A stretch of 64,000 nt of DNA from a virus: positions 1-64,000 of the IMG/VR virus record IMGVR_UViG_3300047445_000406. One strand, written 5' to 3'. Position numbers and translations under genes: made by a program. Positions 3,830 to 64,000 of the stretch are shown here, in pieces. The notes under the pieces are model-generated. The model was given only the letters and a program-made list of their open reading frames with translations, was not told the origin of the DNA and did no database searches. Each line of letters begins with the position of its first letter. Within the stretch, counting starts at the first letter, position 1.

Positions 3830-6013
3830 TTACTTGCCCTTTGGTTTGCGCAGTTCCAGGTAGTGTTCCAGCATCTTCAGTCCGCCTTGAGCACGGGCTT
3901 GCTCTCCTTGTTTCTGGAGATCGCGCTCTTGCTTGACACCGGATTCCTGCTCAACGAAGTCCAGGTTCTGTTGGTCAGTAGCCGAATTGAGGTTTGCTGC
4001 CTTGGCACCTTCGGTAACCGTCTTGGCATCTGCCAAACCAGCTTCCTTGAGCGTTTTCTCCGCTTTGGCACGGATCTCAGCAATCTCAGCCTCGATCTTG
4101 GCGATCTCCAGCTCCTGCATCTTCTGTGCAACAGGATCTGGTTCTGGCTTGAACGACTCAATACGCTTGGCAAGGTCCGGCATTTTGCGCAATTTGGCGA
4201 TGTCGGACAGGATCATCTTGGCCAAGCCAGGATCGGCAGTGTTGCCCATGGTTTGGAGCATGAAAGCCAGCTCTGAAGCCTTGTGCTCGTCTTCCTCAGC
4301 CGTGCTGATGGACAGCTTGAGGTCGAAGTTGCCGGCCAGGTCATCGCGTTTGATGGCCACGTAGTCTTCATCGGTGACCCGGATCACCTCTTCCTCGCTC
4401 AGCCACTCGCTGTTCATGGCGATGATCTTGCGGCCGATCTCGATAATGCCGGCCGACAGGCGACGCAGGATGCCCAACTCACGCTTGGAGGCCGCATCCA
4501 GTGCACCACGCACGCCAGCCGCAACATCGCCGAGGGAGGCGCCGGAAACGCCCTGGCTGAAGCTGCGCACACCGGTCAGCGATTCCGCTTCCTGGTTCAT
4601 CAGCTGCGTCATGACAATGGCCGACTGCGGGATTTCCGGGTAGGTGTGGGTGTACACGCCCTGGCGAGGATCCACATTGCCGTTGAACTCGTAATCCAGG
4701 CCTTTCTCGAACTTGCGCTTGTTGGTCGCATCGAGCATGTCCTTGCGCATGCCGGTCTGGCTGTTGGCCGACTTGCCCATCAGGTCGATCATGCCGCGCA
4801 TCACGGCACCAAGGATCTTCTGGTTTTCTTCCAGCAGGGCGCCGTCCGGCTCGCCATAGTTAGAGTTCCGTACCGGCAGGTACTTGACGATCACATACGG
4901 CAGTTTCTTGTCCGGGAAGGGCAGCTTCTCCATGCGGATGATCTGGTTGCCCACCCAGGTGGCCAGGATCGGTTGCACGATGCCGGTGTTGTCGATGTCC
5001 CAGAAGCCAGAGAACTCATAGGCCACGAATTTGGTGCGGGGCTGGTCCTGGAAGTTGAAATTCGACACGCCCAGGCTGGCGGCATGGTCCGGTTCAGCCA
5101 GCGGGCTGTTCTGGTTGACCATGATCTTATCCAGGTTCTTGTAGCGGCCGTCCTCCTTCAGCGTTGACAGGTAGGTTTCAAAGCTGTGGATGATGAACTG
5201 GGCCTTATCGACCTTGCCCTTGGCCATCGGATCGATGACCACATTGCGGAAGTCGCAGATTTCCACGGTCGGCTTGTTGCACAAGACCTTCTTCTTCTCC
5301 GTGGTCTGCCAGTCACCATCCTGCAGGATTTCCGGACGCACCGGTGTGCCCTGTTCCGCCGTCATGCGCAGGGCTTCCTTCATTTCATCGGGGACTTCAT
5401 CACGGAAACGGCGTGGATCCTGCACCTTCATCTGCATCAAGGCCTGGATGGCCGGCGCAAATTCAGGATCCAGCACGTACTGCACCGGCGGGGCTTGTTC
5501 CTGAGAGACTTCGGCCCGGTATTCCCAGCCGAGTTTAACGATGATCGTGCCCTCATCGACGCCGGTACGCACGTATTCATCAATGAATTCCTGCTTGTCG
5601 AAACAGGTATTGAACTGGTGATTGAGCACCAGCTGGTTCTGCTGGGCTGCACCGCGATCGGCCCAGGTCACTGGCGCCACGTTGTACACATCCTCGGTGC
5701 TGAGGAAAGGCTCGGACAGGGCGGCATACCGCCACTCGGCCTGTTTGCGGATCAGCTTGGGCTGGACCGAGGAGCTGCCCTTCACTGGTTTGATGGCGGC
5801 CTTGCCTTGCACATGCAGGTTATCCAGCCAACTCTCGATCTTGCTCTTCTGCACCTGGTGCAGGTCGCGGGAATCCTCCAGATGCTGCTTGAGCTGCATC
5901 AAGGTGGGCTCGTTTGCCCAATCGGTGAGCTTGGTGACGCTGTTCTCTTCCCTTTTCGGGGAATCATCCGTCACCTCTGCTTCATCGTTGGTATTGATCT
6001 CAGCTTCAGCCAT
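3830..6013 (-). CDS. Portal protein (N4 gp59 family)
   Basis: 727 aa; KLTDWANEPTL, SSVQPKLIRKQAEWRYAALSEPFL, LDAASKRELGILRRL, LDFVEQESGVKQER motifs. Confidence 0.95.
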   Translation of the reverse strand: MAEAEINTNDEAEVTDDSPKREENSVTKLTDWANEPTLMQLKQHLEDSRDLHQVQKSKIESWLDNLHVQGKAAIKPVKGSSSVQPKLIRKQAEWRYAALSEPFLSTEDVYNVAPVTWADRGAAQQNQLVLNHQFNTCFDKQEFIDEYVRTGVDEGTIIVKLGWEYRAEVSQEQAPPVQYVLDPEFAPAIQALMQMKVQDPRRFRDEVPDEMKEALRMTAEQGTPVRPEILQDGDWQTTEKKKVLCNKPTVEICDFRNVVIDPMAKGKVDKAQFIIHSFETYLSTLKEDGRYKNLDKIMVNQNSPLAEPDHAASLGVSNFNFQDQPRTKFVAYEFSGFWDIDNTGIVQPILATWVGNQIIRMEKLPFPDKKLPYVIVKYLPVRNSNYGEPDGALLEENQKILGAVMRGMIDLMGKSANSQTGMRKDMLDATNKRKFEKGLDYEFNGNVDPRQGVYTHTYPEIPQSAIVMTQLMNQEAESLTGVRSFSQGVSGASLGDVAAGVRGALDAASKRELGILRRLSAGIIEIGRKIIAMNSEWLSEEEVIRVTDEDYVAIKRDDLAGNFDLKLSISTAEEDEHKASELAFMLQTMGNTADPGLAKMILSDIAKLRKMPDLAKRIESFKPEPDPVAQKMQELEIAKIEAEIAEIRAKAEKTLKEAGLADAKTVTEGAKAANLNSATDQQNLDFVEQESGVKQERDLQKQGEQARAQGGLKMLEHYLELRKPKGK

Positions 6014-40111: not shown

Positions 40112-40749
40112 GCTTGGAAGACCTCCCTGCACAGTTTGGTTTTGGCGACACGCTTGGCAAAGCCTTCAGCGTCCCCCTGCTTCTTGGTTTGGCGGCCGAT
40201 GTTGACCATGTCGCTGATGGCATCGATGTTGCCGAAGTCCGCCAGGCGGTTGCCGCCGTGCTTCCACCAGAACCAGCAAGCCGATTCAGCCGCCCCTTCC
40301 GGGGTGGCCAGGTAATCACCGATGCCCTCCAGTGGGCGGTCCACCGCATCGGCAAAGGCAGCCTGGTTATCCCGCCCGGTAAGCTGAATCCAGCCGGCAC
40401 CGCGGTGCAGCCAGCCATCATCGGTACCCTGGCCGCGGTTGCCCATGCGGTCGCCATACACATAGTTGGCCAGCTTTTGCGGCTGCCGTTCGTACTGGCG
40501 GGCGATCTCTATGGAGGGGAAGCGGAAAGGCCAGACTTGCAGCAGGCGCTCGGCCCGGTAGTTCATGCCTTCGCGGAAGGCGGTCAGGTCATCGGACTCC
40601 ACCAGCAGCTGGCCCATGAAACAAGCCAGACGGGTAGGGGTGTCGATGCCATACAGGTCCAGGTAGCGGTTCAGGATGGTTGCGTAAGACGCAGCCTTGT
40701 TGCCAACCAGAGGAGCAATCCTGCTTAAGGCTTCAGGAGTGACGTTCAA
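40108..40749 (-). CDS. Endolysin, glycoside hydrolase family 19
   Basis: RLACFMGQLLVES, REGMNY, ANYVYG-RMGN, DGWLHRGAGWIQLTGRDN, SACWFW; TTG start. Confidence 0.9.
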   Translation of the reverse strand: MNVTPEALSRIAPLVGNKAASYATILNRYLDLYGIDTPTRLACFMGQLLVESDDLTAFREGMNYRAERLLQVWPFRFPSIEIARQYERQPQKLANYVYGDRMGNRGQGTDDGWLHRGAGWIQLTGRDNQAAFADAVDRPLEGIGDYLATPEGAAESACWFWWKHGGNRLADFGNIDAISDMVNIGRQTKKQGDAEGFAKRVAKTKLCREVFQA

Positions 40750-61426: not shown

Positions 61427-61885
61427 ATGAAACTCCAACTCGAACAAGCAGAAATCGAAAAGGCCGTGCAGGAATACGTGGCCAACCAGGGCATCAAGGT
61501 CGAGGGTAAAACCCTGACCGTGAAGTTCTCCATGACCCGTGGTGAACAAGGCCTGATCGCCGACCTGACCATCGATGAAGTGAAGGCAGATATCAAGCCT
61601 GTCACCCGTGCACCGCGTGCCGGTACGGTGGGTGCCGCCATCGCCAACCAGTCGGCCGGTCAGTCGGGCAAACAGGAAGCCAAACCAGCCCCGACTACCG
61701 CCAAGGAAGCGATCGAGCAAGCCACGGCGGCAGCAGCTGAAGCGGCGGCGGCCCGTACCGAGCAAACTACCGCGGTGGAAACCGAGGAAGCCTCCCAGGC
61801 TGCAGCGGAAGAGACTGCCGGCGAAGCCAAGGAAGAAACCGTATCTGCTCCGGCTGCGGCGCCTGCCAAATCCCTGTTCGGCTAA
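61427..61885 (+). CDS. N4 gp47-like protein
   Basis: L-QAEIEKAVQEYV--QGI, F-MTRG--GL-A, Ala/Glu-rich linker, C-terminal KSLFG. Confidence 0.75.
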   Translation: MKLQLEQAEIEKAVQEYVANQGIKVEGKTLTVKFSMTRGEQGLIADLTIDEVKADIKPVTRAPRAGTVGAAIANQSAGQSGKQEAKPAPTTAKEAIEQATAAAAEAAAARTEQTTAVETEEASQAAAEETAGEAKEETVSAPAAAPAKSLFG

Positions 61886-61900
61886 GCCACAGGCCAGCAC

Positions 61901-62095
61901 ATGAAAATCCGAGCTATCCTTAAGGGAATCGGCATTGGTGTGCTGGCCATACTCGCCATTGTCGTGGCGATCGTAGGCTTTGTGCTGTCGGCCGTCATGG
62001 GAATTGCAGTATCGCTGGCCGCCATTGGTGCACCGTTCTGCCTGGCCATTGTCATGGCAGTGCACGACTGGGTAACCAGGAAGAAAGAGAAGTAA
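61901..62095 (+). CDS. Small membrane protein
   Basis: Long hydrophobic stretch and basic tail; last middle gene. Confidence 0.65.
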   Translation: MKIRAILKGIGIGVLAILAIVVAIVGFVLSAVMGIAVSLAAIGAPFCLAIVMAVHDWVTRKKEK

Positions 62096-62102
62096 CCGTA
62101 AA

Positions 62103-62500
62103 GCCCTTGCCGCGGTAAAGAGCAGGGGCAACAAGAAAGCCAACTCCACGCCCAAACATCAGGTAGCAAGCTGAGGGAGCAATCCCATATATGCGCTACG
62201 GGGAGGGTGGACCAGCGGTAGCCGCGGTCATAGGAGTTGGCCTCCTTGTTTATCGAATTGCGGGTGTACTTCACCTGCTCCAGAAAGGTGGCCACAATTA
62301 CGGACTACCCAGCACCTGTGCTGCGCGTACACACCGTTGGAAACAAGCCTTTTGTGCCAGATGACAGGCCTAAACACATCGTCAGGTGAGAGACGCAAAC
62401 ACCTATATGACACAATAGAGTGTCGCCCCGGCAGAGACAACTGCCAGAGGATAACTTCAGAGCATCGAAACTCAAAACAAACACGTCTCGCTGGTCGAGT
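62103..62500 (+). ncRNA. Candidate large structured non-coding RNA
   Basis: About 13 nested or adjacent helices forming three multi-stem domains, GNRA loops (GCAA, GAAA), G-U wobbles only on the + strand, no credible ORF. Confidence 0.55.
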
Positions 62501-62502
62501 TG

Positions 62503-62540
62503 AGAGAGGGGGTGGATCGAAAGACCCACTCCCTTTTCTT
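62503..62540. terminator. Terminator between the middle unit and convergent vRNAP gene
   Basis: AGAGAGGGGGTGG-ATC-GAAA-GAC-CCACTCCCTTTTCT. Confidence 0.8.
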
Positions 62541-64000
62541 ATTTGAACGGCGACATCAGCGCATTCACCGTGCCCAGTTCATCCAGGGTGGTCACGTACT
62601 TCAGTGCCCCGGTGCTGAACGGATTGCCCAGACGGTGCACGGCAGCTGAGTCCATCAAGGTCGGTACCGCATCGAAGAAGTGCGATCCAATCAGCAGCAT
62701 CAGGGCACGGGCCGGGTTCTCCCGGTACAGGTGCATGATGATCTTCTGGATGCGCAGGTAGTACTTCGAGAAGTACACAAAGCCCATGTCGTTGGCGTAT
62801 TGCAGCAGACGGTGCGATGGCACGTCGTAGTTGATGAACGCATCCGACACCAGCTGGATTGCCTGCTCAGTGCCCATCGGGTTGCGTGCACGGTTGGTCA
62901 TGTGCTGGTACAGCGTGTATCGGGCCACGAAGTCCGACAGCTGGGTACCATACGACAGCGCCTTGTACAGCGGCGTGTCATGCGCAATGACCAGTGTCTT
63001 GGCCGTGTCCACCACATGTGGATTCAGCTTGTCAGTGAACTCGTCCACCTTGCGGGTGAAGCGTCCCTTGAAGCTGTACATGTCATCGTCCGCCGCCACA
63101 TCCTCCACGATGGTTGGCATCAAGCCCGCATCGATCAGCTGGCGTACCGGATTACGCGCCAGGGCATCCTCCAAGATCACCTTCTGGCGTTCCAGCTCAC
63201 GCTGGTTGCCGGCCGGCAGATACTTGGTGGACAGCTGCAGATTGATCCGTTCCAGTGCCTCACTGTCCTTACGGTACGCCAGGGCGCCTTTCATGGCCAC
63301 CCGGTGGTGGCGCAGGATGTCCGGCAACGGTACACCAAACCACAGCAGCTCGGTCATGTTCGAGCTGATATTCCCCATCAGGGTGACCCCTGACTTCACC
63401 ACCATCGTGTCCTTGGCTTCACGCACGAAGGCCTGCCAAATATCCTCCCCCTGACGCAGTCGCAGATTCGCCTTGTCCCCAAAGAAGAACGTCGCCATTT
63501 CCGCCAGCACCCGTGCCACGGCACTGTGCTGCTGCACATCCTTGTCCAGCACATCCGCGATCGACAGCTTGCGGTAACCGAAGTTGATGTCGAGCAGATC
63601 GACCCGCACCATCATGTTGTTGCCACCCCAGATATCCCGCACCGATTGCTTGGTGCTCTCCGGCAGCAGGCGCCAGATCTCACGCAGCTCCGGATCCGTG
63701 CTGTTGGCCCCCACCCGCAGATAGCTGTGGTGACGGGTAGCATATTCCGCATCGTACTGGTCCTTCAAGGCCTGCACCGCCGTGGCATTCTGCTCCTTGG
63801 TCATTTCCTTGTCGAAGATATTGCCCGCCATTTTGCCCAGCAGTTGCTCGAAACGGTTGTCCCGTTCCAGCAAGGTGTCCTTGGTGTTCTCGTTCATCAT
63901 GTAGCGGTAATTCACTACATCACCCTGGGCATTGAGTACCGGTGCCAGGAAGGCACCGCCCACCTTGCGCGGATCGAAGTTCGGATCGGCATTGAACATG
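62539..64000 (-). CDS. Virion-encapsidated RNA polymerase (N4 gp50), C-terminal part
   Basis: DINFGYRK-S, AKD-MVVKSG, NPV--LI-AGL-PTI-ED, Q-SDFVARY-LY, FINYD-P, YF-KY-LRIQK; convergent with middle genes as in N4; runs off the window. Confidence 0.88.
   Translation of the reverse strand, partial: MFNADPNFDPRKVGGAFLAPVLNAQGDVVNYRYMMNENTKDTLLERDNRFEQLLGKMAGNIFDKEMTKEQNATAVQALKDQYDAEYATRHHSYLRVGANSTDPELREIWRLLPESTKQSVRDIWGGNNMMVRVDLLDINFGYRKLSIADVLDKDVQQHSAVARVLAEMATFFFGDKANLRLRQGEDIWQAFVREAKDTMVVKSGVTLMGNISSNMTELLWFGVPLPDILRHHRVAMKGALAYRKDSEALERINLQLSTKYLPAGNQRELERQKVILEDALARNPVRQLIDAGLMPTIVEDVAADDDMYSFKGRFTRKVDEFTDKLNPHVVDTAKTLVIAHDTPLYKALSYGTQLSDFVARYTLYQHMTNRARNPMGTEQAIQLVSDAFINYDVPSHRLLQYANDMGFVYFSKYYLRIQKIIMHLYRENPARALMLLIGSHFFDAVPTLMDSAAVHRLGNPFSTGALKYVTTLDELGTVNALMSPFK

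Follow-up and report, generated by a model that had tools for sequence, protein, structure and literature searches.

A new three-way-junction RNA family beside the relic of a tRNA-Arg gene in the last middle-operon gap of an IMG/VR phage

In the phage studied here, the gene-free gap that closes the middle transcription unit on its 3' side is a composite of separate elements, one of which is a ~100-nt RNA, hereafter the junction RNA, which represents a new, undescribed family. This RNA folds on the + strand into a three-way junction with one near-invariant hairpin, and it is followed by the relic of a tRNA-Arg(UCU) gene, a variable trailer and an intrinsic terminator. We analyzed a window of 64,000 nt (positions 1 to 64,000 of the 77,895-bp IMG/VR virus record IMGVR_UViG_3300047445_000406; Table 1). 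A first-pass annotation had read the gap as a single RNA of ~430 nt with several domains, perhaps a scaffold, decoy, ribozyme or virion RNA, a description that we abandon because parts of the gap differ in history.

Results

The gap is non-coding and matches no known RNA family

The gap is closed on its far side by the stop codon (62539-62541) of a 3391-aa virion RNA polymerase (vRNAP) ORF on the - strand. At its C-terminus the vRNAP shares 46% identity with the corresponding enzymes of LUZ7 and other Schitoviridae, which places the phage, judged by this protein, among the N4-like phages yet distant from every cultured relative. Relatives were retrieved from IMG/VR with the vRNAP C-terminus as query; the eleven nearest in the protein search (P0002-P0012) share 58-83% identity over the C-terminal 542 residues, and the closest relative compared, L003 (81% vRNAP identity), has a syntenic gap of 472 nt. 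Aligned across the gap, the window and L003 differ by indels of 1-2 nt, and the gap is for this reason taken to be non-coding. That it is the largest gene-free gap in the window, as had been proposed, is plausible, since the rival 430-nt gap at 40316-40745 is spanned by a 213-aa ORF on the - strand and has a folding z-score of +0.8.

The Rfam check that the first-pass annotation had suggested bore out its view that no known family matches the gap: Rfam 15 at the gathering score gave 0 matches in the whole window, and at E ≤ 10 over 61800-62800 it gave nothing credible, the best match being a terminator look-alike (19 bits vs an 80-bit threshold). Across the window and 30 related loci, Rfam at gathering and E-value thresholds returned tRNAs and tmRNAs only. 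Neither the window nor the rest of the genome gave an ARAGORN call for a tRNA or tmRNA, and a scan for sigma-70-like promoters found none inside the gap or upstream of the junction RNA in the window.

Table 1. Features of the gap and the ORFs preceding it (window coordinates).
Feature	Position	Strand	Details
ORF	61427-61885	+	152 aa; matches PHROGs of unknown function
Last ORF before the gap	61901-62095	+	64 aa; stop at 62095
Gene-free gap	62096-62540		445 nt; 3' end of the middle transcription unit, before the vRNAP stop
5' hairpin GCCCUUGC/GCAGGGGC	62103-62129	+	Directly after the stop of the 64-aa ORF; z -2.3
Junction RNA with outer stem P1 (AACAAG/CUUGUU)	62130-62250	+	z -4.4
Three-way-junction core	62139-62241	+	P2 (62139-62147 with 62233-62241), linker A, arm P3 bearing GNRA hairpin H1 (62175-62186)
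Hairpin H2	62210-62230	+	GACC-A-GCGG-UAG-CCGC-GGUC, near-invariant; followed by junction A
tRNA-Arg(UCU) relic	62260-62282	+	Acceptor 5' strand 62260-62266, loop UACUU, acceptor 3' strand 62272-62278, U73, CCA 62280-62282
3' trailer	62283-62500	+	Blocks in common with L003: 62283-62304, 62335-62352, hairpin 62409-62424
GAAA-capped intrinsic terminator	62503-62541	both strands fold	Between the converging middle unit (+) and vRNAP gene (-)

The folding signal is unevenly spread over the gap

The first-pass annotation had noted how foldable the gap is. Scored as a whole against shuffled sequences, it does fold beyond chance (z = -4.19 on the + strand, -2.41 on the - strand), and each hairpin named in that annotation was located where it had been placed. 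When the three domains drawn by that annotation were scored separately, 'domain 1' (62130-62250) gave z -4.4 on the + strand and -4.7 on the opposite strand, 'domain 2' (62251-62340) gave -0.9, which is within chance, and 'domain 3' (62341-62490) gave -3.2 on the + strand and -2.3 on the opposite strand. The predicted GAAA-capped terminator is sound (z -3.4). Domain 1, the terminator and part of domain 3 thus account for the folding signal of the gap, to which domain 2 contributes nothing.

The domains fared differently in other respects as well. Domain 1 stands through its folding on the + strand and its covariation (see below), apart from an inner TCAG/CTGA pairing that is lost in L003. The GCGG-GTGTAC stem said to close domain 2 is unsupported because GCGGGTG, on its 5' side, once served as the acceptor strand of a tRNA that has been deleted. 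Within domain 3 only the hairpin GACAC/GTGTC (62409-62424) is kept, and the GAGACG/CGTCTC and GCCAG/CTGGT closing stems need an insert that is absent in L003. The claim of an undescribed, structured phage RNA on the + strand lacking an Rfam match thus survives for domain 1 (~100-120 nt) and fails for the rest of the gap.

Domain 1 and the 5' hairpin are ~85-90% identical between the window and L003 in alignment. The 5' hairpin was found in these two phages only, and a C-to-U change in L003 turns one of its pairs into G·U, which fits the + strand only.

The junction RNA recurs in eight phages

Over 62130-62250, RNAalifold returned a consensus with 3 compensatory pairs, from a single pairwise comparison. 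The outer stem P1 occurs in the window and L003 only, and what defines the family is the core inside it, with the order P2, one A, the variable arm P3/H1, H2 directly abutting, one A, and the 3' strand of P2. Single-sequence minimum free energy folding of each member alone gave the same shape (92-103 nt, P2 of 5-9 bp), with the interior of the P3 arm differing between subfamilies. Sequence is free to vary in P2, P3 and H1 while pairing is retained. H2 is almost invariant among members (consensus GAyyA-GnnG-UAG-CnnC-GrUC-A): the two basal pairs, the bulged A and the G-UAG-C top do not vary, the inner pairs covary as CG/UA/GC, and the UAG loop is present in every member except L041 (UAU). Both junction adenines are likewise invariant. 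An invariant H2 and invariant adenines set on variable stems fit the pattern of a scaffold, in which the stems would present one recognition surface.

H2-type hairpins with covarying inner pairs recur in L003, L011, L015 (identical to L061) and L042, and an exact scan of IMG/VR for the H2 pattern returned 5 contigs, all with the family architecture, with <1 match expected by chance. A covariance model built from L011 and L015 only (R2; 544 kb searched) recovered the window copy at full length (27.8 bits, E 2e-4) and also gave full-length matches in L042 (47 bits), L041 (42.6), L003 (32.4) and L089 (30.6), with E-values from 7.5e-10 to 2e-4 and the expected P2 in all. A further model, R3, scored the window copy at 39.2 bits and added one member, L159 (30.2 bits); on other Schitoviridae loci it found no further copy. 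The family as counted comprises eight members, from six Schitoviridae lineages and two unrelated phages. By kinship, the window and L003 form one close pair and L041 and L042 another, and L011 and L015 share long identical stretches. The GC content of the phages spans 49-60%, and vRNAP identity among members falls to about 47%. Of about 75 Schitoviridae loci examined, 6 carry the element, which is therefore dispensable.

Outside the Schitoviridae, L089 is an unrelated high-GC phage in which the element has a terminase-like ORF on one side and a DUF4055 ORF, probably encoding the portal, on the other, with a terminator behind it. L159 is an 87-kb phage contig. An array of 16 tRNA genes lies 2.8 kb upstream of its element, and a further hairpin and an intrinsic terminator come after the element. 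In both phages the element is thus intergenic with its own intrinsic terminator behind it, an arrangement that speaks for a free-standing RNA. At L159:11107-11139, a TATAAT box stands 6 nt ahead of where the junction RNA starts; the -35 region is poor and the consensus scan made no call, and the box hints that the junction RNA may have its own promoter there. The elements of L015 and L042 lie 0.7-1.2 kb upstream of the operon end.

The junction RNA was found in no cultured phage: blastn of the window gap, the L042 element and the L015 element against 50,697 cultured phage records gave no match. Exact 18-19-mers from the window matched, in IMG/VR, L003's contig only, plus one chance coding-region match (L006), and an additional 19-mer scan gave no new members. 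The H2 pattern also matched 11 sites in metagenome and GTDB genome contigs, mostly inside coding sequences or lacking the family architecture and in keeping with the number expected by chance; among these, L097 is a possible member and L098 a doubtful one. A looser H2 pattern picked up ~42 near-identical AT-rich contigs of different architecture, which we left out of the member count.

These last contigs carry an observation in their own right. In L116 (1480-1600), L103, L108 and about 40 other IMG/VR contigs of AT-rich large phages, a highly conserved non-coding stretch lies ~450 nt upstream of a phage tmRNA gene and has no Rfam match. It contains a covarying hairpin (variants of UUUACUGC...GCAGUAAA), and an H2-like hairpin GAUCAGAGGUAGCUUCGAUCA sits inside CAUCGCA/UGCGAUG; the likeness to the junction family may be due to chance, as the architecture differs.

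Covariation supports the fold on the + strand

Covariation was scored on the junction RNA members in a nine-row alignment (A9) that includes the uncertain L097 and L098. Another alignment of the members, made with MAFFT (A6), placed the helix ends wrongly and was excluded from the counts. Covariation is strong: in A9, 23 of the 31 pairs differ on both sides. The covariation score was 0.632 vs 0.176 in shuffled alignments, and fell to ≤0.112 when the partner was slid by 1-3 columns. As many as 92.9% of cells were paired vs 63.5% in shuffles, a fraction inflated by the fitting of A9 to the model structure, and 0/500 shuffles equalled the observed values.

Folding energy of domain 1 does not separate the strands (z -4.4 vs -4.7). 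About 15 G·U cells of A9 would read A·C on the opposite strand, and every Schitoviridae copy has the orientation of the middle genes and tRNAs around it; both observations point to the + strand.

A tRNA-Arg(UCU) gene has been reduced to its acceptor stem

At the position of window 62260-62282, L003 has 54 additional bases that complete an intact tRNA-Arg(tct) (called by ARAGORN; Rfam tRNA, 61.7 bits). The window retains bases 1-9 and 63-76 of this tRNA (GCGGGUG-UA / CUU-CACCUGC-U-CCA), which form a 7-bp acceptor microhelix with UCCA in which 7/7 pairs are kept, one of them as G·U. Relative to L003 there are two substitutions, G67 to A and C70 to U, and pairing is preserved in both, the latter creating G3·U70. 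On this comparison, 62260-62282 represents a tRNA-Arg(UCU) gene that has lost 54 internal nt, a relic and not a member of the tRNA family, and the phage has lost its only tRNA. The alternative that the intact tRNA of L003 arose by insertion, rather than being the ancestral state, is unlikely because both halves of the acceptor stem persist in the window. The relic has no cloverleaf (D, anticodon and T arms), with 0 genes called by ARAGORN and no Rfam tRNA at E ≤ 10; the first-pass statement that the gap resembles no tRNA is accordingly right for detection programs and wrong for this tRNA stump.

Acceptor microhelices and minihelices of tRNAs are minimal substrates for RNase P, the CCA-adding enzyme and some synthetases. 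With its 7-bp acceptor stem, 5-nt loop and single-stranded UCCA, the relic resembles such a microhelix; it differs in having arisen by gene deletion and in lacking a T arm. A G3·U70 identity pair lets alanyl-tRNA synthetase charge microhelices. The relic combines G3·U70 with NCCA and has U as its discriminator instead of A. The stump is most likely a neutral remnant, possibly still a cleavage signal.

The acceptor 3' strand (window 62272-62290) can also pair with the trailer, as CACCU/AGGUG in the window and CGCC/GGCG in L003. One compensatory change suggests that this alternative acceptor/trailer hairpin is conserved, and it would hide the CCA end.

The trailer evolves fast and the terminator differs between relatives

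With blastn and nhmmer, the trailer is matched in L003 over short stretches only. The hairpin at 62409-62424 is kept in L003 with two compensatory changes, and is followed by a window-specific insert of ~75-90 nt (about 62425 to 62500) that is absent in L003 and holds the 3' partners of the domain 3 closing stems. The U-tail of the terminator overlaps the vRNAP stop codon, and a terminator of its own stands at this position in each of L003, L004, L009, L011 and L012. The trailer is fast-evolving; it, the tRNA-Arg stump and the terminator are the ordinary, explained parts of the gap.

Related loci carry tRNA genes and other structured sequences at the same site

From about 75 related loci we took the 2.4 kb before the vRNAP stop. 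Several carry tRNA genes on the strand of the middle genes, namely Arg-UCU in L003, L041, L042 and L057, Arg-CCU, Tyr and Gln in L010, Arg-CCU and Tyr in L074, Ile in L045 and Leu in L086. The intact tRNA (L003) or relic (window) lies 13-18 nt downstream of the junction RNA, and tRNA genes occur within 0.2-2.8 kb of the element in L015, L041, L042 and L159, so that a link between the junction RNA and tRNA genes is suggestive.

Further observations concern syntenic gaps in other lineages. In L009 (71% vRNAP identity; 3952-4022, - strand) the gap consists of a terminator plus a tRNA-Arg(GCG), with no space between the tRNA and the vRNAP stop. Orphan T-arm-like motifs (GGUUCGAnUCC), 33-46 nt apart, occur in L011 (3980-4200, - strand) and in the syntenic gaps of L013, L019 and L067; their spacing is too short for whole tRNAs, they drew no ARAGORN or Rfam call, and they could represent either tRNA stumps or small RNAs with a T arm, as in T4 rnaC. 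The syntenic gap of L004, a relative of 49% identity (5489-5843, - strand), holds unrelated sequence with z -6.7 and a 19-bp stem, and other lineages may have other small RNAs at sites of this type. L003 (5899-5926, - strand) and L012 share a hairpin, CCCACUUnCCAGAUAGGnCUGGGG, right after the stop of the last middle ORF (in L012 a small membrane ORF), which does not occur in the window.

Discussion

We consider it reasonably probable that the gap, behind the last middle gene, forms a bay for small RNA genes of a kind that this branch of the Schitoviridae fills with tRNA genes and other small RNAs, holding the ~100-nt junction RNA, a dead tRNA-Arg(UCU), a trailer and a terminator, and that the junction RNA is processed, stable and partner-binding. 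The gap unit would be transcribed by read-through from the middle genes, and host tRNA-processing enzymes (RNase P at the tRNA or stump, RNase E and 3' exonucleases) would then free the junction RNA, which could persist as a stable small RNA; co-transcription followed by release through this machinery appears to be the most economical model. H2 and the two junction adenines may bind a protein or RNA partner, probably of the host. No neighboring protein is conserved among the members, which suggests a host partner, and a search for an antisense target of the invariant 17-mer of L011 and L015 in their own two genomes found none. Our best guess is that the junction RNA is a stable, processed small RNA with a binding partner.

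The nearest parallel is phage T4. Ever since T4 species 1 and 2, phages have been known to encode small stable RNAs next to their tRNA genes, and these are still without a function. Like the junction RNA, T4 rnaC (species 1, 139 nt) and rnaD (species 2, 119 nt) are structured and of unknown function, and as tRNA-Arg(tct), rnaD and rnaC are adjacent on one strand, so the junction RNA lies beside tRNA-Arg(UCU). The T4 RNAs, which we take to be released by tRNA-processing enzymes, are 3' of their tRNA, whereas the junction RNA is 5' of its own; rnaC has a T-arm-like hairpin, its 3' part folding as CCGGGUUCGAAUCCCGG, and the junction RNA has none. Model R3, run with filters off on the T4 locus, gave ≤5.2 bits over rnaC and rnaD and no match. 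The parallel is one of kind, not of homology.

To our knowledge, LUZ7 is the only member of the Schitoviridae with a long-read transcriptome. Its orf69-orf70 spacer yields abundant non-coding RNAs of <250 nt (sRNA1-3), one apparently by processing (PMC9163698). This spacer (L008) is near the end of the middle region, separated from the vRNAP stop by three small ORFs; it has no sequence likeness to the window and no H2 hairpin, at 46% vRNAP identity. Theta ribozymes, which are minimal HDV-like ribozymes, flank phage tRNAs and have been proposed to aid tRNA end maturation (PMC10879173). The likeness lies in a structured RNA directly beside phage tRNA genes, but the junction RNA is 5' of the tRNA, and our own descriptor for an HDV-like/theta nested P1/P2/P3 fold after the CCA found 0 solutions in the window and L003 (5/200 shuffles give one).

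Other readings must be weighed against a processed, partner-binding RNA. That the whole 430-nt gap is one multi-domain RNA (a scaffold, decoy or ribozyme) gains from the folding of the gap as a whole (z -4.2), from its having one 5' hairpin, one terminator and no internal sigma-70-like promoter, and from the strong folding of the gaps of L003 and L004 (z -4.9 and -6.7). We nevertheless judge it very unlikely: L003 has an ordinary tRNA gene in the middle, domain 2 folds within chance, the closing stems of domain 3 depend on the window-specific insert, the junction RNA stands alone in L015, L042, L089 and L159, and L009 has a terminator and a tRNA only. Still harder to sustain is the proposal that the gap, junction RNA included, is functionless, decaying debris of a former tRNA island. 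The tRNA-Arg has clearly decayed in a phage without any tRNA, and the orphan T-arm-like motifs of related gaps suggest frequent decay, but debris is not expected to covary; compensatory changes maintain four helices down to ~47% vRNAP identity and in unrelated phages, and H2 is nearly invariant, which leaves this proposal extremely improbable.

Two readings concern the junction RNA itself. It may act in cis in the 3' UTR of the middle operon, as an exonuclease block, a processing signal or a buffer for converging transcription, which would suit an element that is always downstream of same-strand genes, with no upstream promoter found in the window. In the window a weak alternative hairpin, AGGAG/CUCCU, with a U-rich tail overlaps the 3' strand of P2, and terminators follow the element in L089 and L159. 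A simple stabilizer, however, needs no invariant 21-nt hairpin across unrelated phages with GC contents of 49-60%; no terminator/antiterminator arrangement is consistent across members (an overlap of H2 with a terminator in L098 is probably a chance match), and the elements of L015 and L042 are well upstream of the operon end, so that we hold a role in cis to be unlikely, if worth keeping in mind. A self-cleaving ribozyme, or a selfish mobile RNA spreading between phages, would account for the patchy distribution (6 of about 75 Schitoviridae loci plus 2 unrelated phages) and for conserved nucleotides at or beside the junction, with tRNA genes near, as for theta ribozymes (PMC10879173). Such an identity is very unlikely indeed, given that there is no Rfam ribozyme match and no HDV-like nested fold after the tRNA or stump, that the single-A linkers leave little space for a known catalytic core, and that no nuclease gene or flanking repeats were noticed around the copies. 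A bolder and rather improbable idea is that the junction RNA is a functional RNA class moving horizontally between unrelated phages with tRNA islands, which might serve as a new ribozyme or, towards a host factor of tRNA processing or tRNA-targeting defence, as a decoy or guide, with the stump possibly an alanine-accepting microhelix.

For annotation, the lesson is that one big foldable gap may be shared by several elements with no relation to each other, and that a stem in such a gap can be what is left of a tRNA. The covarying fold and near-invariant 21-nt hairpin of the junction RNA, present in two otherwise unrelated phage groups, offer a defined target for pull-down, deletion and structure work. 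For the N4-like phages, the end of the middle operon emerges as a fast-turnover small-RNA site, at which tRNA genes are gained, swapped and deleted to a stump.
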